From Dickeya solani IPO 2222 (lineage in GTDB: Bacteria > Pseudomonadota > Gammaproteobacteria > Enterobacterales > Enterobacteriaceae), in the NCBI RefSeq assembly GCF_001644705.1, contig NZ_CP015137.1, positions 600,001-632,000 of the forward strand: a stretch of 32,000 nucleotides of DNA. The letters are read 5' to 3'. This document shows, in pieces, positions 1 through 28,371 of the stretch; the stretch's first letter is position 1, and each line of letters starts with the position of its first letter. The notes under the pieces were generated by a model. That model saw only the letters and a list, made by a program, of their open reading frames with translations. It ran no database searches and was not told where the DNA came from. Made by a program: the position numbers and the translations under genes.

Positions 1-541
1 GGGGCGTTATCTGCTGCTGTAAACGGCTACGACTGTCGAGTAGGCTACACATCACCCATTCTGAGCGCTGTAACGAAAGATGTAAGTTATACAAATAGGA
101 GCCGTCGGTATCGGTAAAACCTTCAATGACAATTTGTTTAAACCACTTTTGCCCTTCCTCGCTGTTTGCGGCCTCCAACACCAGCGGCACAACATCCTGT
201 AGCGCTTTCTGACCGTCAGCATTGAGGAAAAAGCGGTTGTGGTCGAAGCGGCCCGCTTCACCAAAGCTGATACGGTTATCACGGCAATCAACAACAATGG
301 TTTTATTGAGGTTGCGGGCGTGCAACTCTAAACGCTCACAAAGGCGGGTAATATCCTGCCCGCGTAATTTCTCACCCTGCTCTACACGCTGGATCCGCTG
401 CGTCACCGAGCTTAATGAAGCAACCATGACGACCAGAAACAACACCATCATGGCCATCATTAGATCCGCATAGGAAATCCAGAAGGGTTTCTCTGCTTCA
501 TCCGTGCGCCGGGTCTTAATACGAAATGTTTGACCGAACAT
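1..541 (-). CDS. zorB: ZorB-like MotB/OmpA-family stator subunit; first 180 codons present, 3' end runs off the left window edge
   Basis: Absent from the ORF track because no stop is reached. Hand translation from the ATG at 541-539 gives MFGQTFRIKTRRTDEAEKPFWISYADLMMAMMVLFLVVMVASL... It has a single N-terminal TM helix with the MotB/ExbD/TolR-type Asp (Asp26 in YADLMM), then an OmpA/MotB-like segment (IVIEGFTDTDGSYLYNLHLSLQRSEWV). It starts 13 nt after the upstream stop, behind a G-rich RBS. Confidence 0.7.
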   Translation of the reverse strand, partial: MFGQTFRIKTRRTDEAEKPFWISYADLMMAMMVLFLVVMVASLSSVTQRIQRVEQGEKLRGQDITRLCERLELHARNLNKTIVVDCRDNRISFGEAGRFDHNRFFLNADGQKALQDVVPLVLEAANSEEGQKWFKQIVIEGFTDTDGSYLYNLHLSLQRSEWVMCSLLDSRSRLQQQITP

Positions 542-554
542 AATTCAGCCCCCC

Positions 555-2744
555 TTATGCCGACACTTTAGAAAGCACTTCTTCAAGGGTTTCAATACTT
601 TCACCAAGCTCGTCAATACCGCTTCCCAGACGTTTAACGGCGCTGTCTAAATTGGCATCCAGCGCCCCTAACGTGGTATCCAGGCTTGTTTTCATGCCGT
701 CCGAGAACTGATTGAATCCATTAGCCAGCACCTGTCCTGCGTTTTCGAGGAACTCTTTCGCTTCGCGGTTGTAGTCATGCAACCCTTCATTGTGCTGTTT
801 CAGTTCTTTCAGGAATTGGCTACGTGCCTCCAGCTCAGACTGGGCATTGGCAATAATGCCTTCCAGCAGCGTGATTGATTTTGCGACCGCCTCACGGTTA
901 TTACGATAATCCGCCACCACCGAGCTAAGCTCCTGGCTGGCCTGGCTCAATGTATTTCCCGCGCCTTGCGCCTTAGTAAGAACATCAGCAGTAAGATGAT
1001 TAGCGTCTTTAACCTTGTCTCCCGCGGTTTCAAAACGCTCAGCAGCGAGGCGCATTTTATCGGCTCCGGTATTCATATCCTGCAAGTGAGCAGACGTCTG
1101 CTCTGCCAGTTTGCGCAGCGTACTTTCCGTAGCGCCCTGCTGTTCATTCAACGCATTAAGCAGCGAGCGGACTTGTTCGTCAAAACCGGCAATAATCTGC
1201 TGAGTTTCCTGATGAAGAGAGGTCTGAGTATCCTGCTGATGACTAGCCAGTTGCTGCTGCCCCTGTTCAAGCTGAGTAAACAATGAGCCCAGTTTTTCGC
1301 CTAACGCCTCAACGGACGCCGCCATTTGTTTCATGGTTTCACTTTGGCCTTGCTGGGACGTTTGCTGGATAGAGTCAATAAACGCTTTCATTTGCTCAGC
1401 CATCGCTTTTTCACGCACTTCACTGTCGGCAAATATTTTTTCCAGCTGCTGCGCCATCCGCTCACCCGCGCCTTCACCTTCGGCACCAATTTTGGCGACG
1501 GACGATTGCAAGCTGGCAAGCATATCGTTCATCCCAGCCTGCATCGCTACCTGTCCGGATTTCATCTCATTCAGTAGCTGTGACATCAGCTCAGCGCTGC
1601 CCTGCCGAGTGTCTTCACTGGCATTACGCATATCCTGTAACAAACCGGCAAAACCCGATTGCATAGCCTCAATCGCGCCAACAGATTGCCCCATCATCTG
1701 CTGCATATTTTCGAACTGCTTGCCAAAGGTATTGTCGAGTTTTGACATAAATGCCGTCAGGACATCCTGCAACATGTTCTGTACCTGACCCGACTGATCG
1801 CCACTGGCCGTCTGTACCGCACCCGCAATTTTATCTAACGGCGACTTCAGACTATTTTCGATGGCACCACTCACTTGCTCGGCAAATTGCTGACCAGTAT
1901 CCCGGTAGGTGGAAGATAAGGTGTGCGCTAGTTTTTCATTTTCAGCGACCTGACTTGCCACCAGGTTCTGCAGCATATCGCGGAGATCGGTCACCAGGCT
2001 GTCTTTAAGCTGCTTGGCCTGAGTGGCACTTTCATTGCTCGATTTCACCAGCTCGGCAAGATATTCTTCACCCACACCGGTTTCAAATAACTGATCAACA
2101 GCGGCGGTAAACTGTTCGAGATATTTATAGCACTTCGCTATCGACAGCTTTTCCAGCCACGTAACAAGAATAGACGCCGCGATGGCGGTAAACGACCCCA
2201 AAAAGGCATAAAGCACATCTCGCAGGAGCGCCGCCACGCTGCTGGTAACTTGCTCAGGCGTACTGGGGTCGAAATGATTTAAACCAATCATCAATCCGTA
2301 AAACGTACCGATAATCCCGACTCCTGTCAGGATCCCTGGCAGGTGCTTAAAAAACTCGGTATTAAGCGGAATATCAATCAATTGCTGTTCAGTGAAAAAT
2401 GCCGCTGCGGGGGCCGTTGCCCGCACATCTTTTAATTTCAATTCACCGTCGACAAGCGTTTTTTGTTGATGGAGTGACTCTGCAAACTCACGCCAGGAGT
2501 GCGCAAGCGGCGTCCCGGTAAATAACTCGCTAAGCTTTTGCAGCTTTACTACCGTTGTCTCATTCTTCCAGCCTGAAATGATTACTGACTGCTTCTTCAG
2601 TTTATTGATAATCTTAATTGCCCGATAAACGTACAAAGCAGCAAAAAATACCAGCGCGACAGCAACGACAATAATAACGACCAGCGGAACCTTTTCAGGT
2701 TGTACGGAGGTCAATATAGTTAAAAACGAGTTAAGCCATTCCAT
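555..2744 (-). CDS. zorA: ZorA-like MotA/ExbB/TolQ-family proton-channel protein with a very long C-terminal helical tail (729 aa)
   Basis: The ORF has an N-terminal TM (VPLVVIIVVAVALVFFAALYVY) and a MotA/ExbB signature (LPGILTGVGIIGTFYGLMIGL) followed by a further TM (LGSFTAIAASILVTWL). After that come ~520 aa of Q/A/E/L/S-rich sequence typical of an extended coiled coil. It is directly followed by a MotB-like gene. There is no flagellar, Tol or Ton context. Confidence 0.7.
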   Translation of the reverse strand: MEWLNSFLTILTSVQPEKVPLVVIIVVAVALVFFAALYVYRAIKIINKLKKQSVIISGWKNETTVVKLQKLSELFTGTPLAHSWREFAESLHQQKTLVDGELKLKDVRATAPAAAFFTEQQLIDIPLNTEFFKHLPGILTGVGIIGTFYGLMIGLNHFDPSTPEQVTSSVAALLRDVLYAFLGSFTAIAASILVTWLEKLSIAKCYKYLEQFTAAVDQLFETGVGEEYLAELVKSSNESATQAKQLKDSLVTDLRDMLQNLVASQVAENEKLAHTLSSTYRDTGQQFAEQVSGAIENSLKSPLDKIAGAVQTASGDQSGQVQNMLQDVLTAFMSKLDNTFGKQFENMQQMMGQSVGAIEAMQSGFAGLLQDMRNASEDTRQGSAELMSQLLNEMKSGQVAMQAGMNDMLASLQSSVAKIGAEGEGAGERMAQQLEKIFADSEVREKAMAEQMKAFIDSIQQTSQQGQSETMKQMAASVEALGEKLGSLFTQLEQGQQQLASHQQDTQTSLHQETQQIIAGFDEQVRSLLNALNEQQGATESTLRKLAEQTSAHLQDMNTGADKMRLAAERFETAGDKVKDANHLTADVLTKAQGAGNTLSQASQELSSVVADYRNNREAVAKSITLLEGIIANAQSELEARSQFLKELKQHNEGLHDYNREAKEFLENAGQVLANGFNQFSDGMKTSLDTTLGALDANLDSAVKRLGSGIDELGESIETLEEVLSKVSA

Positions 2745-3638
2745 TTTTCATCCCGAGTCAACAACAGATTATTTTTCTGATAATTACCCACCGGCACTCA
2801 TAAAAAAGCGTTATGGTGAAACAGTAAATTGATATGCAGTTTTCAAATTCCGGAGAAGAGGTGACGCCAGCAAAATAGAGTGAACATCAATAATCCCTTA
2901 ACCCACAGCGCCAGTTCTTCTTCCTCTTCAAGCAATCAGATTCTTCGCAAATCATAACCTGCTGCACAAGGATAACAAGTAGAAAATGGTCAACCAGTCC
3001 TTCTAAAACATATGGTGTACATTCCCACCCGAACAATAACACAATTAATTATCCAGCTAATTATAAAGCAACATAACCATCATTTGAAAATAGCTTCTTA
3101 TTTCTATAAATTCCGTTAAGAAAGAATAAAAAACAGGAATGACATTTCATGACGAATCTGCTGCATATGACTAAAATCACTCTACCTCTACAAGTTCATC
3201 CCCGCCAGCAAGCCGGTCTATATGCCATTTTTTAGGTTCAAGGAAAGAAGGTGACGACGTTTAATGAAAGAGTCAGATTTTCAAGATCTATTTCGCCGCC
3301 ATTATTTACTTTTAATTCACGCAAAATGGGCACGGTATTTTGATGGGACACAAAACCGACCTTGCTGGCGAAGACCGAGTCTAACGCGATGTTGATCACT
3401 TCTCCTGTATATCTGTGTGGTGATAACTACCCAATAGCAGATCCCATCCGCATCACTTTCTACTAACCTAAAAAAATAAAAATTTCTGGCCAGGAAAATC
3501 CGTCAAACAAAAAACAGCCACACATCAGATAAATCTTATAAATTCATCTAATTGTAATAATCTTTAGAAAATTTTCACTTATTTTTCAGCTAGTTTCACT
3601 GTAATAACACCATGAATTGGCCTACCTGAACTGAGAGA

Positions 3639-4512
3639 CTACGCTCTAAACACATGCCCCCGATGCCATTCCACAAACTGCTCTAACGGGTAATACTCGC
3701 GTTTTTTGGGCATAAAAAGCGGTTTTCCTTCAAAATCCCAGAAGAGTCGTTCGACAATCTTGCTGCCGTTAACGCCATCAGAAACCATCAATTTCATTTC
3801 GTCAGTAATACCGATAACACCGATATCAAATGCACAGTGGTGTACCGAGCATAAGGCCAGTCCATTAGTTACGGTACAGGGGCCGCCGTATTGCTTCCAT
3901 TTGATGTGCGCGGCTTCCAGGCCGACAGGTGTCGTATCGTAGCGTAAATCATAGCCGCATACCGCACAGCGGTATTGATACGCACGTAACACTGTCTGAC
4001 GAAAATGGGGATCGCGGGATTATCTGACATCCTCTATCGACAGTTCCAGGCGACTGGCAATCACTGCCTGCACACTCTCAGGAAAATGTTCACTCAAAAT
4101 CTGCTGGGCCAGTTTCTCAATGAGCCGTGGCTGTTTTTTTAACAGTTGATAGCTGACTTCATCAAAACCACCCATGACATCATGTTGAATAAGCTCACGG
4201 TTAGGCGGCTCTTTACTGCCTTTCTGCGGTGAGCAACGATCATCATTCTGTAATTCCCAGAAACCATCGCCTCGCAGCCGCCAAAATGGCATCTCCGGGT
4301 AATGAGTCCGCCGCTGTGGCCCAAAGCTGTTCAGCAGTGTCAAAAGGTTAGGGCGAATTTCATTGCCGTAATGAAACAGGCGCGGATGCCCTTGCTGATA
4401 GGCTGATAACACATAAAGCAGCAACAGCGGCTTTATGTGACGCACGCTGGTCGCCTTTACGCCACATAGACATGTTAGTAATTGCTGTTTGAAGGGCTTG
4501 AACGGATGGCAT
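3639..4512 (-). pseudogene. Decayed SBD-HNH (McrA-like, phosphorothioate-DNA-dependent type IV) restriction endonuclease gene
   Basis: Three minus-strand ORF pieces join into one ~290-codon frame. (1) MPSVQALQTAITNMSMWRKGDQRASHK starts at the ATG 4512-4510. (2) It then shifts frame at the A-run at 4432-4434 into KPLLLLYVLSAYQQG...MPFWRLRGDGFWELQ...IEDVR. (3) An in-frame TAA at 4020-4022 follows, and the same frame continues as SRDPHFRQTVLRAYQYRCAVCG...LEAAHIKW...NGLALCSVHHCAFD (HNH_2-type motif). Confidence 0.6.
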
Positions 4513-4568
4513 ATCTACATGATGGCAGGGAATATTTATTGCGATTTTGCTCGCAAAATCAGTGGTGC

Positions 4569-5038
<470 letters not shown>

Positions 5039-5142
5039 TTAACCATGAATTGGAGAACGCGCTATCTTGACCCATGACAAGGCGGCCCGAGCGTTAGCCT
5101 CTTTATAATCAGGCCTGTTTGTCTTCTCACTGGTGTGAAAGT

Positions 5143-6264
5143 ATGGCTTATCAACTTAACCTTAACTGGCCCGAATTTTTAGAAAAATACTGGCAAAAAC
5201 AACCCGTTGTATTAAAGAATGCCTTCCCGAACTTCGTCGATCCCATTACGCCGGATGAACTGGCGGGGCTGGCGATGGAGCCGGAGGTGGACAGCCGCAT
5301 CGTCAGCCATGCGAATGGTCAGTGGCAGGCGTGGAACGGGCCGTTTGAGCAGTTTGATCATTTAGGGGAAACCGACTGGTCCCTGTTAGCCCAGGCGGTT
5401 AATCACTGGCATGCCCCGTCTGCCGAGCTGGTGCGTCCGTTTCGCGTGCTGCCGGACTGGCGTTTAGACGATCTGATGATCTCCTTTTCCGTTCCGGGCG
5501 GCGGCGTCGGGCCGCATATCGACCAGTACGATGTGTTTATCATTCAGGGGATGGGCCGCCGCCGCTGGCGCGTTGGCGATAAGCTGCCGATGCGCCAGTT
5601 CTGCCCACATCCGGCGCTGCTGCACGTTGATCCTTTCACGCCGATCATTGATGAAGAGCTTGAGCCGGGCGACATTTTATATATTCCGCCGGGCTTCCCG
5701 CACGACGGCCTCACCTTCGAAACCGCGTTCAACTACTCGGTGGGCTTTCGCGGGCCAAACGGCAGGGATTTAATCAGCAGCTTTGCCGACTATGCGCTGG
5801 AGAACGATCTCGGCGGCGAGCACTACAGCGACCCTGACTTAACCTGCCGGGAACATCCGGGCCGGGTGGAAGGGTATGAACTCGACCGTCTGCGCGCGAT
5901 GATGATCGACATGCTCAATCAGCCGGAAGATTTTAAACAGTGGTTCGGTCGCTTCGTGACAACGCCACGCCACGAGCTGGATATCGCCCCCGCAGAACCG
6001 CCCTACCAGCAGGATGAGATTGCCGACGCCCTGATGTCCGGTGAAGTCTTGATTCGTTTAAGCGGGTTGCGGGTGCTGCATGTGGGCGATAGCGTCTTCA
6101 TCAACAGCGAAAGGCTGGAAACCGTCGCCCCGGAAGCCGCCGATGCACTGTGCCGTTACACCACTCTCGGCAAAAAAGAATTCGGCGAGGCGCTGCATAA
6201 CCCGGCGTTCATTGCAGAGTTAACCGAGCTGGTTAATCAGGGCTACTGGTTCTTCGACGAATAG
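5143..6264 (+). CDS. roxA: Ribosomal protein uL16 Arg-hydroxylase, JmjC/cupin oxygenase (YcfD/RoxA)
   Basis: MAYQLNLNWPEFLEKYWQKQPVVLKNAF...SFSVPGGGVGPHIDQYDVFIIQG.GRRRWRVG...EPGDILYIPPGFPH aligns almost end to end with remembered E. coli YcfD. I prefer the ATG at 5143 over the TTG at 5119 used by the ORF track. Confidence 0.9.
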   Translation: MAYQLNLNWPEFLEKYWQKQPVVLKNAFPNFVDPITPDELAGLAMEPEVDSRIVSHANGQWQAWNGPFEQFDHLGETDWSLLAQAVNHWHAPSAELVRPFRVLPDWRLDDLMISFSVPGGGVGPHIDQYDVFIIQGMGRRRWRVGDKLPMRQFCPHPALLHVDPFTPIIDEELEPGDILYIPPGFPHDGLTFETAFNYSVGFRGPNGRDLISSFADYALENDLGGEHYSDPDLTCREHPGRVEGYELDRLRAMMIDMLNQPEDFKQWFGRFVTTPRHELDIAPAEPPYQQDEIADALMSGEVLIRLSGLRVLHVGDSVFINSERLETVAPEAADALCRYTTLGKKEFGEALHNPAFIAELTELVNQGYWFFDE

Positions 6265-6350
6265 TTCTTCTACGAATGGTTCGTCGATAAAAAGCGTGCC
6301 ATAAAAAGTGGGATGGAAAGAGCGGCGGTAATATACCCGGTCTGCTAGCC

Positions 6351-6377
6351 TAAAGTTTGAACAGAAAAGACCGATAC
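6351..6377 (+). promoter_or_regulatory. Candidate sigma-28 (FliA) class-3 flagellar promoter
   Basis: TAAAGTTT-N11-ACCGATAC compared with the consensus TAAAGTTT-N11-GCCGATAA. The -35 element is perfect, the spacer is exact, and the -10 matches 6 of 8. It lies ~140 nt upstream of the YjfB-family ORF. Confidence 0.55.
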
Positions 6378-6514
6378 CGAAAAGAAGCTGGCACAACATG
6401 CTGCCAGCGCATCGGTGTACTGATGAACATCATATTGATGGACGTCGTCCCGGTGGGCAGGAGAATATCCCTGCCGTATCGGTACTCCCCAGACCCAGAC
6501 ATAGGATAATCAAG

Positions 6515-6703
6515 ATGGATGTTTCACAGATCGCATCACTTTCCACTGGTCTTAGCAACATGCAACTCAGCAGCGAGATCAGTACCACTGTTCTAAAGAA
6601 ATCGTTAGACAATCAGAAAGATACGGTAAACAGTCTCATTCAGTCGATCCCGCAATTGCCCGCCAATCCGGCAATCGGCCGTAACATCAACACCACGGCA
6701 TAA
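6515..6703 (+). CDS. YjfB-family small putative motility protein (62 aa)
   Basis: MDVSQIASLSTGLSNMQLSSEISTTVLKKSLDNQKDTVNSLIQSIPQLPANPAIGRNINTTA matches the YjfB_motility pattern (MDVS.IAS.ST...Q.....S..VLKK..D....). The internal ATG at 6515 has an AGGA RBS. The 5' extension in the ORF track is probably untranslated. Confidence 0.7.
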   Translation: MDVSQIASLSTGLSNMQLSSEISTTVLKKSLDNQKDTVNSLIQSIPQLPANPAIGRNINTTA

Positions 6704-6730
6704 TCGCTTCCATAACGGTTTTGCAAACAA

Positions 6731-6765
6731 ATAGCAGCTACTCAACTAGCTGCTATTCATTTATT
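6731..6765 (+). terminator. Rho-independent terminator after the yjfB-like gene
   Basis: A 10-bp perfect stem (ATAGCAGCTA 6731-6740 pairing with TAGCTGCTAT 6747-6756) with a 6-nt loop, followed by the T-rich tract TCATTTATTT. Confidence 0.6.
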
Positions 6766-7027
6766 TGCCCCAACCCATCGTAATACTGAGGATATAATCC
6801 CTTGAGGTCTTATCTTCTCCGGTAAAACCCTTCCCCTATTGACCTCGTTATACAGTCAGTTGCCGGTGCATTGGCGGTGTTACCCGGCTCATTTCCCTGG
6901 CCGCTGCAAATCGGTTTATGCTGGCTTATCATTCACACCGCTCACTGACTTATGTCCGCTTTTGGGGATTCACCCGATTGCCGCCCTTCACGTTTAACGC
7001 ATTTTTTGGAATATCACGCCTGTATGT

Positions 7028-8143
7028 TCAAAGGCCAACAGCCTTACGAGACAGGCCGACCAGCATGTCGCGCGATTTGATCTTGCGGGCGAGAAATGGC
7101 GCCCGGAATTGACCGAATGGCAGCGAGGTCAGGCCGTCATTCCGACCCAGCGTGACGATCATGATTTTGCCCATACCTTTGCCGGGGTTCGCCGGTTTAT
7201 AAGGCTTCAGCCTGATCTGGGATGACGGTTTCGCCGCGATTAATGCCCTGATATTCGTAACAATCGACTTGGCATGCAACCCAGCGACAATCGCCAGCCG
7301 GTTTTCAGGCAAGTGAGTGATATCACCGGCAGCAAACACCGTTTCATGCCCTTTCACTCGGAGATAGTGGTCAACGGTGATCAGACCATCGTGCTGTACC
7401 GCGTCAGGCCATGACCTGGCGACAAAATCAGTCACCGGCTTCGCTCCCGCCGCCCAGATTACAGCATCGGCGGCGAGCACCAGCCCCGACTGGGTGATGA
7501 CCTTACCGTCCTGAGGCTGTTCTCCCGGCGCAGGCGACACGACGCGATCATCGAGTGCAAATTTAACCCCCTTGGCGCGCAGATCTTTTTCCGCCCAGCG
7601 AGGAAATTTATCCGGCGCATTGTTCAGTATGGATTTGCCACTGTGGACCAGAGCGATCGCCAAACCGGGGAACGCCTCGCACAACTCTGCGGCGATCTCA
7701 ATACCGACCGGCCCTCCGCCCGCCACCACAACGGCGCTGGCTTCGCGGAGGCGTTTGTTCATCGACTTGATTTCGGCGGCGCGGCCTACGCCCAACGGCG
7801 CCTGTGCTTTGATGAGCGGGTCGATATACGCTGACCCTGTTGCGATCACCGCATAATCGAATGGCACCGTGTCTTCGCGGCCATCCGCCAGCGCCACACG
7901 CGCACTATGGTCAGTCAGCATCACCACTTTCCCTTGTATGTGTTGCGCCATGCCAAGGAAGCTGTCATAGGGAATGCGTGCAGCCAACCCGTCAGGATCA
8001 ACCAACAGGCGCGGAACCGCCATCGGCACTTCCCAATACGTTTTTGGATCAACGAGGGTCACGTTCGCCGCATCACGCAACTGATAGGCGATTTGATGCC
8101 CCGCCGCCCCGCCACCAATAACAAGGACTGATTTCTTTTGCAT
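7028..8143 (-). CDS. FAD-dependent pyridine nucleotide-disulfide oxidoreductase (NDH-2/AIF-like)
   Basis: N-terminal Rossmann motif VLVIGGGAAGHQIA, a second dinucleotide motif VVVAGGGPVGIEIAAEL, and a C-terminal AAGDIT motif. An AAGGAAG RBS is present. Confidence 0.8.
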   Translation of the reverse strand: MQKKSVLVIGGGAAGHQIAYQLRDAANVTLVDPKTYWEVPMAVPRLLVDPDGLAARIPYDSFLGMAQHIQGKVVMLTDHSARVALADGREDTVPFDYAVIATGSAYIDPLIKAQAPLGVGRAAEIKSMNKRLREASAVVVAGGGPVGIEIAAELCEAFPGLAIALVHSGKSILNNAPDKFPRWAEKDLRAKGVKFALDDRVVSPAPGEQPQDGKVITQSGLVLAADAVIWAAGAKPVTDFVARSWPDAVQHDGLITVDHYLRVKGHETVFAAGDITHLPENRLAIVAGLHAKSIVTNIRALIAAKPSSQIRLKPYKPANPGKGMGKIMIVTLGRNDGLTSLPFGQFRAPFLARKIKSRDMLVGLSRKAVGL

Positions 8144-8167
8144 ACCGGCACTTCCTTTCGAATTACG

Positions 8168-9028
8168 TTATGACCGCAACGCGGTGCGGCGGTTAAGCGC
8201 GGCGAACGCCGGGCTGTGTTGTAGTTGGTCAATCGTACGTTCACCTTCGACGAGCGCATCGATACTGGTGTGGACTGAATAGGCGCCCGTCACGAGCGGG
8301 TACGGATGTTTAGCCGATGAACCGATGACCAGTTCGACATCACCCTCGGCGGTCATTTCGATTGCCTCATTCCCTTGTGCGAACACCGCCAGCTCACGCT
8401 CAAGCACCGCCTCACCGACGCGCAGCTTGCCGCTATTCAGCGCCAGCCACGCCGTATCGTGATCGGCACCGGGTTGGTAGATCCAGCGCTCGCCGTCGGT
8501 CAGACGAACATGAAGATAGGTGATGGACACGGGCAACTGAATCGGGCTGGTTGCGCTGCCGTAGCGTCCAAGCAGGATACGCGCCGGCCCGTCGCGCTCG
8601 ATCCGTTCCGGTTCCAGATACAGACTCTGCGCAGGAGCAAGCTCAAGCGATGGCGGAAGCGCGATCCAGAGCTGATACCCGCGCATCATGTGGTCAGGCG
8701 CGGGCTCGCCGGCGTGCCATACCCCGCTTCCGGCGCGCATCCACTCGACCGATCCCGCAGACATCGCGCCCTGCTTTCCGGTGGTATCGCCATAGGTCAT
8801 GCTGCCTTCCAGGAAGGTAGTGAGCGTCGCAATACCCGAATGAGGATGAGGTCTGAAACCCGTACCGGTTGACGGTATGGACTCGAACAGATCCAGGAAA
8901 ACGAACGGTTTGACCCGTTGCCCCAGATCGCCAGGCGTCATCAGCCGGGTGAGTGGACCAAGACGTTGACCCGACGTACGGTGAACGATGGCGCGCGTTG
9001 CCGCAGAAAAAGCCAGAGGGTGTGCCAT
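8168..9028 (-). CDS. Pirin-family bicupin protein
   Basis: Contains the FRPHPHSGIATLTTFLEG cupin metal motif and a WIALP motif. I prefer the ATG at 9028 (MAHPLAF...) with an AAAGG RBS, because the longer ORF-track start translates through the tandem repeat. Confidence 0.8.
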   Translation of the reverse strand: MAHPLAFSAATRAIVHRTSGQRLGPLTRLMTPGDLGQRVKPFVFLDLFESIPSTGTGFRPHPHSGIATLTTFLEGSMTYGDTTGKQGAMSAGSVEWMRAGSGVWHAGEPAPDHMMRGYQLWIALPPSLELAPAQSLYLEPERIERDGPARILLGRYGSATSPIQLPVSITYLHVRLTDGERWIYQPGADHDTAWLALNSGKLRVGEAVLERELAVFAQGNEAIEMTAEGDVELVIGSSAKHPYPLVTGAYSVHTSIDALVEGERTIDQLQHSPAFAALNRRTALRS

Positions 9029-9040
9029 AAGCGGTACCTT

Positions 9041-9118
9041 TTGGAAGCGAAGAGCAAGATGTTGAAACGAGAAGCCAGATGTTAAAGCGAAAGCCAAATG
9101 TTGAAGCGAAAGCCAGAT
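9041..9118. repeat. Four tandem ~19-20-bp direct repeats, consensus GTTGAAGCGA(G)AAGCCAGAT
   Basis: Read directly from the sequence: TTGGAAGCGAAGAGCAAGAT / GTTGAAACGAGAAGCCAGAT / GTTAAAGCGAAAGCCAAAT / GTTGAAGCGAAAGCCAGAT. They lie in the azoR-pirin intergenic region and end 13 nt before the pirin start codon. Confidence 0.85.
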
Positions 9119-9190
9119 CGAGCGGCGCCGATACCCATCAATGACCGGTCGGCACCGCGCAACGCAACGCCGGTAAACCCAGACGGTAAG

Positions 9191-9802
9191 TCAGGCGATA
9201 AGCGCGTCGATTTCCACTCTGGCCTTTGCCATCGCGGCGGTTTTCGCTTCATCGCCCAGTGCCAGACCTTCCGCACGAATAATGGTGATGTCGGTCAGAC
9301 CGATGAAATTGAGCGCGGCCGTCAGATAGGGTTCCTGATGATCGAATTGAGCCGCAGGGCTGTCGCTGCTGTAGATGCCGCCGCGTGCCGAAGCGATGAA
9401 AACCTTCTTGCCTGCCGGCAGCAGCCCTTCCGGCCCATGTTCGGTGTAGCGGAAGGTATGCCCGGCGACCAGCACGCGATCAATCCAACCTTTTAGCTGG
9501 GAAGAGATCGAGAAATTGTACATCGGCGCGCCAATGACGATAACGTCGGCGGCGAACAGCTCGTTGATGTAAGCGCCGCCGAGGGCGATGTCCTGCCCAA
9601 GCGCCGGCGTGCCGGGCGTTCCGCCCTGAAAGACGGCGAGATGGTCGGGGGACAGGTGCCATGCCGCATCAGCGACAAGATCCCGACGAATAACGGTTTT
9701 CCCCGGATGAATGTTGAGTTGTCTGGCTACAATGTCGGCCGACAGCAGGCGGCTCACGGAATGGCTGCCAAGAATGCTGGAATCAATATGCAGGATGCTC
9801 AC
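9191..9802 (-). CDS. azoR: FMN-dependent NADH-azoreductase / quinone reductase
   Basis: ILHIDSSILG...APMYNFSISSQLKGWIDRVLVAGHTFRYTEHGPEGLLPAGKKVFIASARGG aligns with remembered E. coli AzoR (AcpD). GTG start with an AAGGAG RBS. Confidence 0.85.
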   Translation of the reverse strand: MSILHIDSSILGSHSVSRLLSADIVARQLNIHPGKTVIRRDLVADAAWHLSPDHLAVFQGGTPGTPALGQDIALGGAYINELFAADVIVIGAPMYNFSISSQLKGWIDRVLVAGHTFRYTEHGPEGLLPAGKKVFIASARGGIYSSDSPAAQFDHQEPYLTAALNFIGLTDITIIRAEGLALGDEAKTAAMAKARVEIDALIA

Positions 9803-9937
9803 TGGTAGATCTCCTTAACAAGGCCGGAACAGGCCGGTGAGTGGATGACGACTGGAGTATTTCACCCTGCAATAAATCTGAATAGACGCTATATTTTTAT
9901 ACATACCATCTCAATTTCAGATACATCAGGATTCCAA

Positions 9938-10846
9938 ATGCTCGATGGCGTATCGCTGGATCAATTACGAACGTTCATTACTGCGGTTGATGAAGGAAGT
10001 TTCTCGGCGGCGGCGCGCCGACTCAGGCGTGCGCAATCCGCCATCAGCGAGCTGGTGCGCAGTCTGGAAGAACAGCTCGACGTTACGCTTTTTGATCGCA
10101 CCGGCCGCTACCCGCGGCTGACGCCGGTGGGCACCGCGTTACTGGCCAACGCCCGCGATATCGTTGCCGGCGTTGATGCCATGAAATCACGCGCCAAAGG
10201 CATGGCCGCCGGGCTGGAGCCCGAGCTGACCATCGTGGTTGACGTTTTCTACCCCATTGACGTGCTGACTAACGCGGCCAAAGCGTTTCGTGAACAGTTT
10301 CCCAACGTGCCATTACGCATCTATGTTGAGGCATTGGGTGCGGCGTATCAGCCGGTACTGGACCGGCATGCCAGCGTTGGGATCGTCAGTTTTCTGCCGG
10401 TGACGCCACCGGGCATCGTCACCGAGCCATTAGGCCGCATCACCCTCGCCATGGTCGCCGCCGCGGACCACCCGCTCGCCGCATTTCAGGGGCCGATCCC
10501 CAGACAGGAACTCGCCAGGCATGTCCAACTGGTACTGACCGATCGCTCAGAGCACTCCAGGGGGCGAGAGTTTGGCGTCATGTCCCCCAAAACCTGGCGG
10601 CTGGCGGACCTGTTTGCCAAACATGCTTTTTTGCTCAATGGGTTGGGATGGGGCGGCATGCCGATGCATACCATCCAGTCGGACCTTGATAGTGGCCGGC
10701 TCGTTAAACTCACCATCGAAGATGAACCCGTCAACGAACCGTCCATGCTGATGTCGGCCGTGTATCGGATTGACAACCAGCCAGGTCCCGCCGGTCGCTG
10801 GCTTATCGAGCACATGACCGCATGCTCCCGCCACCGATCAGCCTGA
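9938..10846 (+). CDS. LysR-family transcriptional regulator, divergent from azoR
   Basis: The N-terminal wHTH LDQLRTFITAVDEGSFSAAARRLRRAQSAISELVRSLEEQLDVTLFDR is followed by a LysR substrate-binding domain. The ATG at 9938 has a CAGGA RBS; the ORF-track start at 9845 is an unlikely extension. Confidence 0.85.
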   Translation: MLDGVSLDQLRTFITAVDEGSFSAAARRLRRAQSAISELVRSLEEQLDVTLFDRTGRYPRLTPVGTALLANARDIVAGVDAMKSRAKGMAAGLEPELTIVVDVFYPIDVLTNAAKAFREQFPNVPLRIYVEALGAAYQPVLDRHASVGIVSFLPVTPPGIVTEPLGRITLAMVAAADHPLAAFQGPIPRQELARHVQLVLTDRSEHSRGREFGVMSPKTWRLADLFAKHAFLLNGLGWGGMPMHTIQSDLDSGRLVKLTIEDEPVNEPSMLMSAVYRIDNQPGPAGRWLIEHMTACSRHRSA

Positions 10847-10851
10847 ATGCG

Positions 10852-10879
10852 CGGTGCAGCGGCGGACGCCGCTGCACCG
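10852..10879. terminator. GC-rich perfect hairpin between convergent genes (terminator-like, no U-tract)
   Basis: CGGTGCAGCGGCG (10852-10864) pairs with CGCCGCTGCACCG (10867-10879). It sits 6 nt after the LysR stop. It lacks a flanking T-run on either strand, so its function is uncertain. Confidence 0.35.
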
Positions 10880-10930
10880 GTAAGCCGTATCCCGCAACAG
10901 CGGATAAGGGAAAAGGTTATCGCCCCGGCG

Positions 10931-11689
10931 TCAGTGGGCACGTAATTCAGACAAGAATTTCTGCGCCCGTTCACTCTGCGGATGAGTAAAAAAGTCTTCG
11001 GGCTTGCCGGTTTCGATAAGGGTTCCCCTGTCCATAAACCAAATGGTATCCGCAACGTCACGCGCAAAATTCATTTCATGTGTGACGCACATCATCGTCA
11101 TGCCGTCACGGGCCAGACTCTTCATCACCTGCAAAACCTCCCCGACCATTTCCGGATCCAGCGCGCTGGTCGGTTCGTCAAACAGCATGACCGGCGGGTC
11201 CATCGCCAGCGCCCGTGCAATCGCGACACGCTGCTGCTGTCCCCCGGATAGCTGACCGGGATAGGCATCCGCCTTATCCGCCAGACCAACCCGCTCAAGC
11301 AGTTCCACCGCACGGATGCGCGCTCGTGGGCGACCGTGCTTTCTCACGTTAACCGGTGCCAGCATGATGTTATCCGCCACGGAAAGATGAGGGAACAGAT
11401 TGAAACTCTGGAAGACAAACCCGACATTACAACGATAGTCGTTAATATTCAGGTTGGCGGAATGTATATCCCGGCCATCAAAATTAATGATGCCACTCTG
11501 AATTTCTTCCAGCCGGTTTACCGTTCGAATCAAGGTCGACTTCCCCGACCCTGATGGCCCGCAAACCACCACCACTCCACCTAATCTGATCTCTGCCGTG
11601 ATATTATTGAGGGCGTGATAATCGCCGTACCACTTATTCACGCCGACAAAGGTAATCATCGGAGGAGAGTTATGTTTTATCGTTGACAT
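10931..11689 (-). CDS. Polar amino-acid ABC transporter ATP-binding protein (GlnQ/HisP-like)
   Basis: Walker [10 protein letters not shown], signature [15 protein letters not shown], Walker [13 protein letters not shown]-loop VTHEM. Confidence 0.9.
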
Positions 11690-11715
11690 AAAAATACCTT
11701 AGAATGAATAACCGC

Positions 11716-12420
11716 TCAGGAAATTCCAGCACGCTTATAAGAAATACGACGTTCGATATAACGTGAAAACTGAGTCAAGAAATAACCCAATATGAAATAG
11801 ATAATCGCCAACAGAAAAAACACCTGAAAAGATTTAGTGAGCAGTGCATTGTTAATCTGATTCGCCGCATACGTCAATTCATTGACGCTGATAATGTAAG
11901 CCAGAGACGTATCTTTAATAACGGATATAAACTGCCCAATTAATGCAGGGATCATGTTATACAGCGCCTGAGGTAAAATAACTTTTTTTATCGACTGGAT
12001 ATAGCTTAACCCTACCGCACGTGACGCCTCCATCTGCCCTTTCGGCAATCCCTGGATCCCGGCTCGTATAATTTCTGAAATATAAGCCCCTTCATAAATG
12101 ACCAGGGTGATCAGCATGGTCGAAAAACCGCTGATGGCGTGACCAATTAATGCCGGAACAAAAAAATAAACCCAGAAAATAAACATAAGCAGCGGCACAC
12201 CACGCACCAGGTACACCATCCAGGTCGCCGGACGGCTTAACCAGGGGAACGGGCTGATACGCGCCATCGCCAGCAGGACGCCCAGCGGAAAAGCCAATGC
12301 GATTCCCAGTGCAGACAATATCAGCGTGATCACAATCCCGCCGAGAGGCCCTTCCGGGTATTGTCCGATTAACAGCAACAGTCCGTTATCGCGTAAGATA
12401 TGTATCATATCGTCCATCAT
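11716..12420 (-). CDS. Amino-acid ABC transporter permease (His/Glu/Gln/Arg/opine family)
   Basis: Multi-TM protein with the EAA-type loop (EASRAVGLSYIQSIKKVILPQA). Its start overlaps the upstream permease stop by 1 nt (TAATG). Confidence 0.85.
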   Translation of the reverse strand: MMDDMIHILRDNGLLLLIGQYPEGPLGGIVITLILSALGIALAFPLGVLLAMARISPFPWLSRPATWMVYLVRGVPLLMFIFWVYFFVPALIGHAISGFSTMLITLVIYEGAYISEIIRAGIQGLPKGQMEASRAVGLSYIQSIKKVILPQALYNMIPALIGQFISVIKDTSLAYIISVNELTYAANQINNALLTKSFQVFFLLAIIYFILGYFLTQFSRYIERRISYKRAGIS

Positions 12421-13112
12421 TACCTCGACTGAATACGATAACGTTGTTCAAGCACACTTCCCGTGTACATAATAAGTAGCGAAACCGCGAGATAAATCAG
12501 TGTCGCCAATAAATACACTTCCACGGTGTGGAATGACTCACTTTCTATTTCCCGGGTAACATAGGTCAGTTCGGTCAGCCCAATCGCCATTGCCAGACTG
12601 CTATTCTTGAACAGTAAAACGGAATGATTCACCAATGCCGGCAAGGCTATCCTCAGAGCCTGAGGAATCATCACCAGACGGGCCGTTTTGAGATAACTCA
12701 AACCAAGCGCCCGTGACGTTTCGTACTGCGCATAAGGAATAGAACGAATACCTCCCCGTAAATCCTCCGACATATAGGCTGACATGGTTAGCCCGATGGA
12801 GATAAACGCACACAGAAATTCACCGTGGTGTTCGTTAATCCAGCGCTGCATGTCGGCGGGAAGCAGAGCGGGAATACCGAAATACCAGATAAATAACTGC
12901 ACCAGCATAGGAACGTTCTGGTGGTATTCCACATAAATTGCCACAATAGGGTGAAACAGTTTTTGATTACTCATCCGAATAATCGCTAATACTGCACCAA
13001 GCACCATTGCCAGCAACCAGGAGCACAGCGACAACCCCAGCATAGTGAGAAACCCACTCATAATCCTTGAGGGATAATCCCCGCTTAGCAGGACAGAAAA
13101 ATCCAGCGACAT
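12420..13112 (-). CDS. Amino-acid ABC transporter permease (His/Glu/Gln/Arg/opine family)
   Basis: Multi-TM protein with the EAA-type loop (ETSRALGLSYLKTARLVMIPQALR). Confidence 0.85.
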   Translation of the reverse strand: MSLDFSVLLSGDYPSRIMSGFLTMLGLSLCSWLLAMVLGAVLAIIRMSNQKLFHPIVAIYVEYHQNVPMLVQLFIWYFGIPALLPADMQRWINEHHGEFLCAFISIGLTMSAYMSEDLRGGIRSIPYAQYETSRALGLSYLKTARLVMIPQALRIALPALVNHSVLLFKNSSLAMAIGLTELTYVTREIESESFHTVEVYLLATLIYLAVSLLIMYTGSVLEQRYRIQSR

Positions 13113-13183
13113 AGTTCTAACCTTTAATCATGCTACTCAAGATAACGCTGTTATTTTAGGTAGGGCACAATGAAGCATTGATA

Positions 13184-13996
13184 TTAATCAATAGGTTTGA
13201 TAGTAAAAGTCCGCTGCAATTTATAAGGTGTATTGGGACCTACCCATTTATCAAAAATTTTGGTTGCTTCGCCAGACTTTTCCATATTCCCGAGAATTTC
13301 ATTTACCTTGTCAATGAATGCGGTTTCGCCTTTACGCATTCCCAGCCCCCAATGCTCAACCATAATTTCCGGCTCAAGAATATCGAGGCTGTCTTTGCCC
13401 GTAAGCTGATTTTTATATTTCACCAACATCAGTTCGCCAAGCGCAATGCCATCAACTTTACTTTGCTGCAACGCCAGAAACGCGGTCGGCGGGTCCTGGA
13501 ATGTCATGGTAGGCGATGCAGGCAGGACTTTTTTAACCGCCATTTCCGAGGTTGATCCTTTAGGTGCGCTAATGCGTTTTCCTGACAACGCATAAATATC
13601 CTTGAACCCGTCACTATGCCGCGCGGCAATTTTTGTCAGACTGAGATAATATTGATCGCTATAGGCAATCTGCTGAGCACGTTCGGGCGTCCATCCCAAC
13701 GCCGCCGCCAGAATATCAACGCGCCCCTGAATCAATTCAGGAATACGGGCCGGGACGGAAATTTGTTTCAGTTCCAGTTTAACGCCCAAACCGTCAGCGA
13801 TGGATTGACAAAAATCCACGTCATACCCCTCCAGCTGCCGAGTTTCCGGATGAGTAAAGCTAAATGGTTCGGTAGTACCTAACGTACCACACACCAATAC
13901 GCCTTTAGCTTTTATATCAGCCAGCTGATCGGCCGAAGCCTGCATGGTGGTAAAAATAGAGCCAAATACAATTAACGATGCAAGTAAGCGACGCAT
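13184..13996 (-). CDS. Periplasmic polar amino-acid-binding protein (SBP family 3)
   Basis: Signal peptide MRRLLASLIVFGSIFTTMQASA. The mature part has SBP_bac_3 features (KGVLVCGTLGTTEPFSF...GYDVDFCQSIADGLGVK). GAGGA RBS. Confidence 0.85.
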   Translation of the reverse strand: MRRLLASLIVFGSIFTTMQASADQLADIKAKGVLVCGTLGTTEPFSFTHPETRQLEGYDVDFCQSIADGLGVKLELKQISVPARIPELIQGRVDILAAALGWTPERAQQIAYSDQYYLSLTKIAARHSDGFKDIYALSGKRISAPKGSTSEMAVKKVLPASPTMTFQDPPTAFLALQQSKVDGIALGELMLVKYKNQLTGKDSLDILEPEIMVEHWGLGMRKGETAFIDKVNEILGNMEKSGEATKIFDKWVGPNTPYKLQRTFTIKPID

Positions 13997-14087
13997 ATAA
14001 TTTCCTCTTGTTTTACATTTATCATGTGTAATACCCCGGTCTAAATATCATCCTACTCAGAGTTAAAAATAAAAAAAACGATTTAAA

Positions 14088-14129
14088 TTTATTGTTTTAA
14101 ATTCCAAAAAGAGATTTAATAACAATAAA
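14088..14129. promoter_or_regulatory. AT-rich 15/16-bp inverted repeat in the SBP / LysR-1 divergent control region
   Basis: TTTATTGTTTTAAAT (14088-14102), an 11-nt loop, then ATTTAATAACAATAAA (14114-14129). This gives 15 bp of complementarity with one bulged T, ending 21 nt before the LysR start. Confidence 0.35.
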
Positions 14130-14150
14130 CTCATTTATGCCGGTGCAAAC

Positions 14151-15050
14151 ATGACATTTAAACAACTAGAAGCACTCTATTGGGTCGCACAGTTAGGTGG
14201 CTTTCAGCTTGCTGCACTAAAATTGCACACAACGCAGTCAGCAATATCAAAAAGAATACAGGAGCTGGAAAATATATTAGGCATTCCACTGTTTGACAGA
14301 AATCAGCGCGCCTCCCGATTAACGGAAAAAGGCGAAGAAATGTTAATTCTGGCAAAAAGAATTCTGGATATGCGCGCATCAGCATTAGAGCAAATCAGCT
14401 CTCCTGATATCATTGAGCGCTCCATTCGAATCGGCGTTACAGAATTAACGGCAATGACCTGGCTGCCGCGCCTGGTTAGCCTGATACAAAGTCACTATCC
14501 GCGTGTGACGCTGGAACCTGATGTTGATATGAGCATTAATCTCAGAGAAAAATTACTGACTGATCATATTGATTTAATGATCGTGCCTGACGCATTTGCA
14601 GAACCACAGCTGGTATCTCAACCGGTTGGAAAAGTCGATAACGTATGGATGTGTAAGCCGGGTTTGCTTGATAATACAGGTGAGACGATTCGCCTGCACG
14701 AATTAGGCGAGCATAAATTACTCATGGATAAATCAGGACCTGGGTTGATCTATCACCGCTGGTTTAAAATGCTTGGTTTTAGCCCCGAGCATAAAATGGT
14801 GAGTAACAGTATCGTGGCACTATTGGCGCTGACAATATCAGGATTAGGGATAAGCTATTTCCCCAAAAATTGCCTTCAAAGGCTGGTTGACGCGGGAATG
14901 CTAGTCGAACTGAATGTCACCCCGGTACTCCCGCCAATAACCTATGTTGCCATCTATAAATCAGATGTTCGCAGCGAACTGATATCGTCGATTATCATGC
15001 TGGCACAAAATTGCTGTAACTTTAATACGATACTCAGTAGTGACCTATAA
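14151..15050 (+). CDS. LysR-family transcriptional regulator (paralogue 1, 299 aa)
   Basis: wHTH FKQLEALYWVAQLGGFQLAALKLHTTQSAISKRIQELENILGIPLFDR. It shares the block GVTELTAMTWLP and the same length with the LysR at 19943..20842. Confidence 0.85.
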   Translation: MTFKQLEALYWVAQLGGFQLAALKLHTTQSAISKRIQELENILGIPLFDRNQRASRLTEKGEEMLILAKRILDMRASALEQISSPDIIERSIRIGVTELTAMTWLPRLVSLIQSHYPRVTLEPDVDMSINLREKLLTDHIDLMIVPDAFAEPQLVSQPVGKVDNVWMCKPGLLDNTGETIRLHELGEHKLLMDKSGPGLIYHRWFKMLGFSPEHKMVSNSIVALLALTISGLGISYFPKNCLQRLVDAGMLVELNVTPVLPPITYVAIYKSDVRSELISSIIMLAQNCCNFNTILSSDL

Positions 15051-15102
15051 TAAAAAATCACTACTGTAAAATACCATCAGGTATCCACTATGCTTAGCGT
15101 TT

Positions 15103-15133
15103 AAAAAACCTCTTCTTATTACCTCAGAAGAGG
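15103..15133 (-). terminator. Rho-independent terminator of the catabolic operon (after the dehydrogenase gene)
   Basis: On the minus strand: CCTCTTCT, a 9-nt loop, AGAAGAGG, then TTTTTT. On the plus strand the stems are 15109-15116 and 15126-15133, with the A-run at 15103-15108. Confidence 0.7.
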
Positions 15134-15180
15134 CTTAACGAAGCAACAATCATCGGTCGTCACGTAACAACCCACACCGC

Positions 15181-16455
15181 TTACCCCGGATAAATACCTC
15201 TTTCTTTTCTTGCGGTCAGAATACGTTCACAGGCAACAATATAAGCCGCGGTTCTGAGGGTACACTGTTTTTCTTTGGCTTTATCCCAAACGTGATGAAT
15301 AGCATCGCGCATAATGTTATCCATACGCGCATTGATTTCGTCCTCTGTCCAGAAATAACTGGCGATATCCTGCACCCACTCAAAATAACTGACGGTAACC
15401 CCACCGGCATTGCAAATCACATCTGGCACCACCGTTATGCCACGCTGCGCCAAAATATCATCTGCATCCGGATACGTCGGTCCATTAGCGCCTTCAAGCA
15501 CCAGTTTACATTTAAGCCGTTGCGCCCGTCCGGCGGTAATTTGCCCCTCCAGCGCCGCCGGGATGACGATATCTGCCTCAACATCCCAGAAAGACTCATC
15601 CGCAATCGGTTCTGCCCCCGGAAAACCGGCAATCACTTTATGCGTTTTAAACCAGCTCACTAACGCGTCAATCGCTATGCCATGACCGTTATACAACGTG
15701 CCGGAATGATCCTGCACACACACCACCTGTGCACCCGCCTCGACAAACAGCAAAGCGGCTTCGCTGCCGACATTACCGAACCCCTGAACCGCGACACGGG
15801 AACCCGCCACATCAATATTCAATTGCGTGGCCACTTCCCTGCCGGTCACGAAAACGCCGCGCCCGGTCGCTTTTACTCGCCCCAGAGAGCCGCCCAGATG
15901 CACCGGTTTGCCGGTGACGACCCCGGTCACGGTGGCGCCAACATTCATGGAATACGTGTCCATGACCCACGCCATCACCTTGGCGTTCGTACCGACATCC
16001 GGAGCCGGAATATCCTGCTGCGGCCCGATGATCAGGCTGATCTCACTGGTGTAACGCCGGGTCAACCGTTCCAGTTCGCTTTCCGACAGCTTTGCCGGGT
16101 CAACCCGAATACCGCCTTTAGCGCCGCCGAATGGCAAATTCAGTGCCGCCGATTTAATGGTCATCCAGGCCGACAGCGCCATCACGTCGTTCAAATCGAC
16201 GTTCGGATGATAGCGAATGCCGCCTTTTCCCGGCCCCCGTGACAGGTTGTGCTGCACGCGGAAACCTTCAAAATGCCGAATCGTCCCGTCGTCCATCACG
16301 ACCGGGATGTCCACAATCAGTGCGCGTTTGGGGTGACGCAATGTATCAATCCAGGGAACCAATTCGCCCAGATAAGGCGCCACTCTATCGATCTGAGCCA
16401 GATAGGTGTGCCATGCATTCGCATCATGTTCATTTACATAAGAAAGCTGAGACAT
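15181..16455 (-). CDS. Glu/Leu/Phe/Val dehydrogenase family; ~424-aa catabolic (RocG/GudB-like) glutamate dehydrogenase type
   Basis: Contains [11 protein letters not shown]...[16 protein letters not shown] (catalytic Lys-Gly motif) and the nucleotide fold [12 protein letters not shown] prefer the ATG at 16455, which sits 9 nt after AAGGAG; the ORF-track start at 16473 lacks an RBS. Confidence 0.85.
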
Positions 16456-16493
16456 TACCAGACGCTCCTTCATTCATTATCGGCAGTACATCA

Positions 16494-17759: not shown

Positions 17760-17925
17760 AGATTTACCCTAATTAATTGGTTGTTTTGTGTGTTTGCTTT
17801 TATTGTTGTCTCTTTAATACCTCACGTTGCCGGGCGGTTGTGACTCCAGCCGCCGACATCAGCACGCGACTGGAGCGCACCCGGTTGCCGCCTGCCTGCA
17901 ACGCGAATTATTTAGGTAATAATGG

Positions 17926-20842: not shown

Positions 20843-20852
20843 CAGCGGGATA

Positions 20853-21926: not shown

Positions 21927-22021
21927 GGTCGGGTTTCCCGTCGTGGTTTTACCGGGATTGTAACAGCTGCCCCAGCGAAAAAACCATGTTCTGAACCCTA
22001 TTCAGGCCAATTTATATGCAA

Positions 22022-22036
22022 GTATTACGTTCACAT
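22022..22036. promoter_or_regulatory. Candidate distal GanR operator (inverted copy of the 22160-22174 site)
   Basis: GTATTACGTTCACAT is the exact reverse complement of ATGTGAACGTAATAC at 22160-22174. It contains a TGTGAAC half-site resembling the lac operator half-site TGTGAGC. Confidence 0.4.
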
Positions 22037-22159
22037 ATCAAAAACCCGTGATGGGCATCACCAATCATTACAAAACAAAATGATTTATTTGCATTAAATC
22101 ACAATAAAACAACGAATCCGTTGCTCAGTTTTACGCTTAGGCATTTTATTGATCGCGTA

Positions 22160-22174
22160 ATGTGAACGTAATAC
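22160..22174. promoter_or_regulatory. Candidate proximal GanR operator in the ganL leader/promoter
   Basis: ATGTGAACGTAATAC. The GTG-N9-CA spacing is the same as in lac O1. It lies 20 nt upstream of the ganL ATG and downstream of a possible TTGCTC-N17-TTTTAT promoter (22121-22149). Confidence 0.4.
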
Positions 22175-22193
22175 ATAACAACAAGAGGCCATC

Positions 22194-23465: not shown

Positions 23466-23548
23466 TCGACGCGATATACGGAATACCCTGTTCTCCGGAG
23501 GTTGTTTTCATCATTATTATCTGAGTTATTGACGCTGTTGTTTTTTTT

Positions 23549-23581
23549 GAGGATAACCAGCCGGGTTATCCTCTTTTTTTT
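23549..23581 (+). terminator. Rho-independent terminator after ganL
   Basis: GAGGATAACC (23549-23558) pairs with GGTTATCCTC (23563-23572), with a 4-nt loop, followed by a run of nine T. Confidence 0.75.
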
Positions 23582-23626
23582 ATTTATCCATATATTATTT
23601 ATTATCCTGCCGTTATTGACGAGCTA

Positions 23627-27444: not shown

Positions 27445-27449
27445 GGTGA

Positions 27450-28364: not shown

Positions 28365-28371
28365 TTTCCCC

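Follow-up and report, generated by a model that had tools for sequence, protein, structure and literature searches.

What phage-defence system is cut by the left edge of this stretch of DNA, and can its type be told when part of its genes lies outside? The window analysed here, 32,000 nucleotides (nt) of the Dickeya solani IPO 2222 chromosome, opens on its minus strand with zorA, a gene for a MotA-like membrane protein with a very long tail, followed by zorB, a MotB-like gene that runs off coordinate 1. An earlier note made from the letters of the sequence had recognised in this pair the stator of the anti-phage system Zorya, had considered the subtype impossible to judge from the window and had allowed for a new partner among the missing effectors. 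We find that the left end of the window holds, with a probability of about 0.93, zorA and zorB as one half of a type I Zorya operon, zorABCD, which is complete and canonical and lies on the chromosome of the potato pathogen D. solani. Both the structure and the mechanism of type I Zorya have been characterised, and the D. solani proteins are already labelled by the Prokaryotic Genome Annotation Pipeline (PGAP) with NCBIfam and by PADLOC; the locus is thus an already known, routine annotated member of a well-characterised family, and it is not new because NCBI names the exact sequences 'type I Zorya anti-phage system protein ZorA1 / ZorB1 / ZorC / ZorD [Dickeya solani]'.

The zorA-zorB pair and its operon

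The zorA gene is an uninterrupted open reading frame (ORF) of 729 codons (Table 1), whose product begins with MEWLNS and whose stop codon occupies positions 555-557. Residues 1-222 of ZorA comprise the membrane motor and the membrane-proximal domain and residues 223-729 the long helical cytoplasmic tail, with hydrophobic segments at approximately 21-39, 137-155 and 177-195, the second of which is the motif GILTGVGIIGTFYGLMIGL that had been singled out from the sequence and corresponds to transmembrane (TM) helix 2. The protein scores 1394 bits against the NCBIfam ZorA1 equivalog NF041794 (cut-off 750; profile positions 1-728 of 729) and 1248.5 bits, end to end, against the PADLOC ZorA1 model, and its residues 1-727 align without gaps, tail included, to 8qyd_A from the Protein Data Bank (PDB; E=1e-301). 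The Pfam search returned no MotA_ExbB match on ZorA at E<=0.01, and the MotA/ExbB/TolQ-type core ascribed to the protein in the earlier note therefore stands on the ZorA profiles and the solved homologue, with the Pfam family silent. The 507-residue tail consists of 11.6% A, 11.0% Q, 10.8% L, 9.3% S and 9.1% E, with a single Pro and neither Cys nor Trp, in agreement with its description as a Q/A/E/L/S-rich, helical-looking extension; that it is helical follows from its gap-free alignment to the Escherichia coli ZorA tail solved by cryogenic electron microscopy (cryo-EM). Whereas a megablast of window positions 1-3300 against 5426 E. coli genomes gave no match, a distant-mode search of E. coli genomes with the same segment found zorA1 at approximately 70% identity. 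Four plus-strand ORFs antisense to zorA (966-1286, 1326-1577, 1333-1788 and 1751-2008) are entirely contained in this strongly conserved gene and are for that reason regarded as spurious.

The zorB start codon, an ATG at position 541, follows exactly 13 nt after the zorA stop, and minus-strand translation of 2-541 yields 180 codons with no stops before the frame leaves the window at coordinate 1. Within this part lie the TM helix that bears Asp26 and the greater share of an OmpA-like domain for peptidoglycan binding, as had been read from the letters for this MotB-like gene; the single predicted TM segment spans residues 28-46 and Asp26 stands just before it, within FWISYADLM. In Pfam, ZorB gives matches that are weak but above threshold, at 28.3 bits to MotB_plug (cut-off 24) and, over residues 99-169, at 27.4 bits to OmpA (cut-off 27.2), and the 180-residue fragment scores 262.4 bits against PADLOC ZorB1 and matches PDB 8qyd_F with E=1e-103. 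Together with the ZorA profile matches, these results uphold the assignment of the pair to ZorA and ZorB, and the earlier note described the two genes correctly down to the single base.

To read the rest of the operon, we turned to a D. solani contig (L001) that was used as a stand-in for the missing left flank because it is 100% identical to window positions 1-12744 (12.7 kb; window position = 12745 - L001 position). On it the four genes are co-directional in the order A-B-C-D (zorA 10001-12190, zorB 12204-12947, zorC 12944-14629 and zorD 14629-17871), with overlaps between zorB and zorC and between zorC and zorD. The fragment in the window is identical to residues 1-180 of the 247-residue ZorB encoded there, which in full length scores 432 bits against the ZorB1 equivalog NF041788 (cut-off 400). 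ZorC is an EH-signature protein of 561/568 residues (Pfam EH_Signature, 113.8 bits; NCBIfam NF041789, 830 bits with a cut-off of 490; PADLOC ZorC1, 814 bits), and ZorD is a Snf2/ResIII/Helicase_C protein of 1080 residues (Pfam SNF2-rel_dom and Helicase_C; NCBIfam NF041790, 1805 bits with a cut-off of 1500; PADLOC ZorD1, 1531 bits). All four proteins thus exceed the NCBI curated cut-offs for type I Zorya equivalogs, and the left flank, far from being free of effector genes, holds the canonical zorC and zorD, by which a new Zorya partner is essentially excluded. An exact-sequence look-up places the exact ZorA protein in the D. solani IPO 2222 genome, and the same protein is encoded on many public contigs, including CP051459 (D. 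solani IFB0417), JABAOP (IFB0487) and JABAOO (IFB0311); another source of such a contig, GCA_016404945, figures in a published study of Dickeya isolates from Switzerland. A ZorA scan of the genome contig collection returned no D. solani locus, which is not taken as absence.

As an observation on annotation, this ZorD matches PDLC02854, a PADLOC model that bears the label DpdE, at 1613 bits and thus better than the best ZorD1 model, while NCBIfam DpdE reaches 29 bits only. It looks as if the PADLOC model was built from ZorD-like sequences, and it could cause Dpd and Zorya loci to be mislabelled.

ZorA and ZorB by themselves suffice to tell the subtype, since both proteins pass the type I equivalogs and ZorA scores 47 bits against the NCBIfam ZorA2 profile NF041792, whose cut-off is 700. 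We give hardly any credence to a reading of the pair as a stator without a role in defence, of the kind of flagellar MotAB, ExbBD or TolQR, or as Zorya of subtype II or III: the weak MotB_plug and OmpA matches on ZorB and the weaker matches of PADLOC models ZorA2, ZorA3, ZorB2 and ZorB3 point in that direction, but ZorB reaches 20.3 bits against the flagellar MotB family NF006548 (cut-off 277), MotA_ExbB finds nothing on ZorA, and zorC and zorD follow directly after zorB where a type II system (zorABE) has ZorE. The stator reading is thereby already refuted, and the profiles place the pair in Zorya rather than in a MotAB/ExbBD clade.

Relation to characterised Zorya and stator systems

As a reference for the type I assignment we used EcZorI of E. 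coli NCTC9026 (Hu et al., Nature 2024/2025, PMC11946911), whose structures are deposited as PDB 8QYD, 8QYH, 8QYK, 8QYY, 8R68, 8QY7 and 8QYC (PMC11946911). The Dickeya proteins match 8qyd_A and 8qyd_F (ZorAB), 8r68_A (ZorC) and 8qy7_A (ZorD) over their full length, the same four genes stand in the same order, and the Dickeya and EcZorI proteins have 729 and 729 (ZorA), 247 and 246 (ZorB), 561 and 560 (ZorC) and 1080 and 1080 (ZorD) residues, respectively. Identity amounts to 66% for ZorA (motor 65%, tail 66%), 85% for ZorB, 47% for ZorC and 61% for ZorD, the last over the first 898 residues. The spacing of the genes is likewise common to E. coli zor operons, which share the 13-nt gap between zorA1 and zorB1 and the overlaps of zorB with zorC and of zorC with zorD. 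EcZorI differs in its host and chromosomal site, D. solani belonging to the Pectobacteriaceae, and in being characterised by experiment.

An operon of identical architecture (RefSeq zorA1, zorB1, zorC and zorD) is found in E. coli E24377A, with 67, 85, 44 and 63% identity to the Dickeya ZorA, ZorB, ZorC and ZorD, and it is reportedly the type I Zorya tested by Doron et al. in 2018. The E24377A cassette adjoins a type I restriction-modification system and a gene for a UvrD-like helicase; the Dickeya cassette, unlike it, adjoins a dead restriction endonuclease of the phosphorothioate (PT)-dependent type and a scrap of an IS21 insertion sequence (IS) beside roxA.

We further compared 36 EcZorI residues to which structural or functional importance is ascribed, not all of them individually mutated in that work (PMC11946911), and found 35 conserved in the Dickeya proteins. 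In ZorA, 18 of the 19 checked residues are retained, namely E86, E89, H92, R108, P126, P136, I144, T147, P163, E164, S184, D217, E227, Y228, L250, L254, L258 and L261, among which E86 and E89 form the Ca2+ site, T147 and S184 the ion filter and L250/L254/L258/L261 the hydrophobic ring of EcZorA (PMC11946911). The exception is Y220, replaced by Phe in Dickeya (Y220F) at a backbone-ligand position, since the E. coli residue ligates Ca2+ through its main chain (PMC11946911). ZorB retains M1, F2, D26, V46, R49, R52, Y151, N152, L155, R159 and the four disulfide Cys residues, Y151, N152, L155 and R159 being the peptidoglycan-binding residues of EcZorB (PMC11946911). The equivalents of ZorC E400 and H443 are found as Glu and His at Dickeya positions 404 and 444, and ZorD retains E651 as well as the DEAQ motif of E. 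coli positions 730-733, here at 732-735.

With MotAB, ExbBD and TolQR the pair has in common that a membrane subunit is joined by a partner with a TM Asp and a peptidoglycan-binding domain of the OmpA type, and the 5:2 rotary principle is established for EcZorAB (PMC11946911). It differs from them in the tail of about 500 residues on ZorA, in a ZorB without plug or linker (PMC11946911), and in partners that are nuclease effectors rather than a flagellar rotor. By homology to EcZorI, five ZorA subunits around two ZorB subunits would form a proton-driven rotary motor in the inner membrane, a ZorA5B2 complex being suggested for Dickeya by the 66% ungapped identity to 8QYD. The periplasmic OmpA-like dimer of ZorB would reach peptidoglycan, and anchor to it, only once the envelope is disturbed by a phage, whereupon proton flow via ZorB Asp26 and the ZorA Thr147/Ser184 filter would turn ZorA around ZorB. 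The tail, as a pentameric helical bundle of approximately 70 nm, could then carry the signal into the cytoplasm, where it would recruit and activate ZorC, as a DNA-binding EH-signature protein, and ZorD, as an autoinhibited Snf2 ATPase/nuclease, and the two may break down phage DNA near the membrane as it enters the cell. Stoichiometry, rotation, trigger and protection in Dickeya would on this analogy be those of E. coli, where protection by EcZorI depends on all four genes, the proton-motive force and the integrity of the tail (PMC11946911).

Cassette, islet and insertion site

Relatives of ZorA and ZorB with at least 90% identity occur in D. fangzhongdai, D. dadantii, D. dianthicola, Kosakonia (K. 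radicincitans) and Enterobacter sp. At two Enterobacter loci, L004 and L019, DNA homology begins exactly 252 nt upstream of zorA and ends at the end of zorD, with overall identity of 87-89% and 85-87%, respectively, and the flanks beyond the cassette are unrelated to those of D. solani, which argues that zorABCD and its promoter moved horizontally as a unit. The segment at 2745-2996 is presumed to be the promoter and 5' untranslated region travelling with the cassette, and it contains a sigma-70-like site, TTGTTA-16-TATGAT at 2978..2951, which is a consensus match only. Pairwise comparison with the cassette of the Enterobacter sp. at L004 gave ratios of nonsynonymous to synonymous substitution (dN/dS) of 0.029 for zorA, 0.022 for zorB, 0.065 for zorC and 0.053 for zorD; the zor genes are thus under strong purifying selection. 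The locus illustrates how a defence cassette, zorABCD with approximately 250 nt of promoter, moves between genera as a unit. In the assembly of L019 (Enterobacter sp. EA-1) the zor genes are fragmented, and only one ATG-initiated ORF of at least 150 residues is found across the cassette.

The cassette lies in a variable islet of 10.9 kb (L001 7691-18594), which extends from window position 5054 leftwards to approximately 5.85 kb beyond coordinate 1 and ends on the right 88 nt upstream of roxA (5143-6264, plus strand). At 46.5%, the islet is lower in guanine plus cytosine (GC) than its flanks, which have 55-56%. Two D. solani strains of the divergent RNS05.1.2A subgroup, found via an exact RoxA look-up, RNS05.1.2A (CP104920) and A623-S20-A17 (contigs L030 and L033), align to L001 1-7690 and 18595-22042 at 98.3-98.8% with nothing aligning between, so that in both of them the Zorya islet is absent from the roxA site and the pair is not core genome at this position. 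In its place they carry a different insert of 6.5 kb between roxA and an mscS-family gene (L033 3447-9912), with a LysR regulator, a dienelactone hydrolase, a cyclophilin-like protein, an MFS transporter, DUF6622 and a tail-fibre-assembly (Caudo_TAP) remnant. The roxA-mscS site is thus a replacement hotspot, and the results support the earlier view of a defence islet, foreign and accessory, inserted beside roxA. A search for flanking direct or inverted repeats and att sites around the islet gave only short matches at chance level.

The decayed nuclease, IS remnant and AT-rich spacer that had been noticed between zorA and roxA are all there (Table 1). The nuclease, a PT restriction endonuclease pseudogene, forms a single frame with an in-frame stop at 4020-4022 and without the N-terminal ~22 profile positions; it scores 418 bits against NF045808 (cut-off 180; profile 23-284 of 284) and matches Pfam HNH_2 and, on the called 141-residue piece, PF26340 DNA-SBD_ScoMcrA. 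Gene callers split it into pieces of 141 and 117 residues or miss it altogether. The istA fragment resembles annotated istA in more than 2700 enterobacterial plasmid records (88-89% identity over 35% of a 615-nt query) and gives a weak NCBIfam IS21 match of 22 bits, with no IS ends and no istB at 4627-4847. For the orphan ORF of 53 residues (MINIALDSVFASKVGFVSHQNTVPILRELKVNN...) and the DNA at 2990-3640, no match was found in NCBIfam, Pfam, PADLOC, PHROGs or plasmid DNA; the ORF may resemble the N-terminus of large defence helicases and could be one more gene remnant. Two further ORFs, of 137 and 45 residues, follow zorD at L001 17991-18543, some 5.2-5.8 kb left of coordinate 1. The larger matches a phage family of unknown function (phrog_18617), and the smaller is a Zn-ribbon protein. 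As candidate Zorya partners they were rejected, having no homologue at 20+ other Zorya loci and no PADLOC match, and they are probably phage debris rather than parts of the system.

Table 1. Position and basis of the features discussed, in window coordinates
Feature	Position	Strand	Basis or remark
zorB, 5' part	1..541	-	Codons 1-180 of 247; runs past the window edge
zorA-zorB intergenic spacer, 13 nt, with GGGGGG ribosome-binding site	542..554	-	Sequence
zorA (ZorA1)	555..2744	-	729 residues; NCBIfam NF041794, PADLOC and PDB 8qyd_A matches
Upstream region of zor, ~252 nt, AT-rich (39.6% GC), presumed promoter	2745..2996	-	Edge of the block conserved in Enterobacter loci
AT-rich stretch with orphan 53-residue ORF	2997-3638; ORF 3238-3399	-	
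Phosphorothioated-DNA-binding (SBD-HNH) restriction endonuclease pseudogene	3639..4445	-	NCBIfam NF045808
IS21-family (ISSen3-like) istA internal fragment, ~220 nt	4627..4847	-	88-89% DNA identity
Right islet boundary	5055	.	Core sequence shared with D. solani RNS05.1.2A begins here
LacI-family regulator	20853-21926		
Maltoporin-like porin	22194-23465		
GanS-like substrate-binding protein	29753-31045		Below cut-off

Function in Dickeya and the remainder of the window

Several points weigh against the identification of the locus as a complete, canonical type I system at work in D. solani. The zorC and zorD genes and the 3' end of zorB lie outside the window, and we infer their presence in its own genome from identical contigs; a literature search on Dickeya and Zorya returned incidental mentions only and no experiment on the Dickeya system. 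The 44-47% identity of ZorC to its E. coli counterparts is low, and target range and partner contacts may therefore differ from those of E. coli. A single-sequence AlphaFold2 model of ZorA shows the whole tail as helical, but with a mean predicted local distance difference test score of 43 and a predicted template modelling score of 0.23 it is of low confidence, adds nothing reliable to the alignment-based claim and cannot independently confirm the fold. Finally, the mode of type I immunity, direct or population-level, is itself disputed (PMC11946911 versus PMC11890865), and one type I system, when driven by its native promoter, failed to protect against the phages tested (PMC11890865).

That last result would also fit a decaying or silent remnant, in which intact-looking genes persist amid dead defence genes and confer no protection in D. 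solani, as would the nonsense mutation in the neighbouring PT-dependent endonuclease, the reduction of the IS21 copy to a fragment of ~220 nt, and the splitting of zorC or zorD in some assemblies (L002/L031, IFB0487; L029, CM001860). Decay is nevertheless improbable in our judgement, given four full-length ORFs with the lengths of EcZorI, the conservation of 35 of the 36 checked residues and dN/dS values of 0.02-0.07. L029 is 99.95-100% identical over the cassette and its alignment breaks coincide with the ORF splits, a pattern that suggests indels in the assembly and not true pseudogenes; the same explanation is an assumption only in the case of IFB0487, and most contigs among the matches listed carry intact genes. 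If the operon is functional, it could act by population-level (abortive-type) immunity, in which a high multiplicity of infection (MOI) leads to growth arrest or death of the infected cells, as suggested by over-expressed Zorya I, with which cultures collapsed at an MOI of 5 and were protected at an MOI of 0.05 (PMC11890865). EcZorI under its native promoter, by contrast, gave direct defence without dormancy or death, with ZorC and ZorD recruited to ZorAB foci (PMC11946911), and sequence by itself does not discriminate between the two modes; we regard population-level action as the less likely of the two, and a type I Zorya that defends the cell directly as the preferred reading.

D. solani is targeted by phage biocontrol, and a type I Zorya, if functional, would be relevant when therapeutic phages are chosen or engineered. 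The dominant clone carries the system, which the divergent subgroup lacks at this locus, and dead defence genes share with the cassette the hotspot into which it came; the islet is thus a lineage-specific mark of defence in a pathogen of agricultural importance. It is conceivable, if rather doubtful at present, that the exchange of the Zorya I islet of the IPO2222-type clone for the unrelated cargo of RNS05.1.2A makes for differing phage susceptibility, and that the phage range, with a ZorC of about 45% identity to the E. coli proteins, also differs from that of EcZorI; were this true, biocontrol of potato blackleg with phages would have to reckon with it.

Over the whole window, Rfam at its gathering threshold gave no match. 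Far from the islet, at approximately 20850-31050, lies a sugar-uptake cluster that encodes MalF/MalG-like permeases in addition to the regulator, porin and binding protein listed in Table 1, together with proteins of 685 and 402 residues that have no NCBIfam match at E<=1e-10. The cluster looks like ordinary core metabolism and would fit the galactan (gan) utilisation locus of Dickeya.

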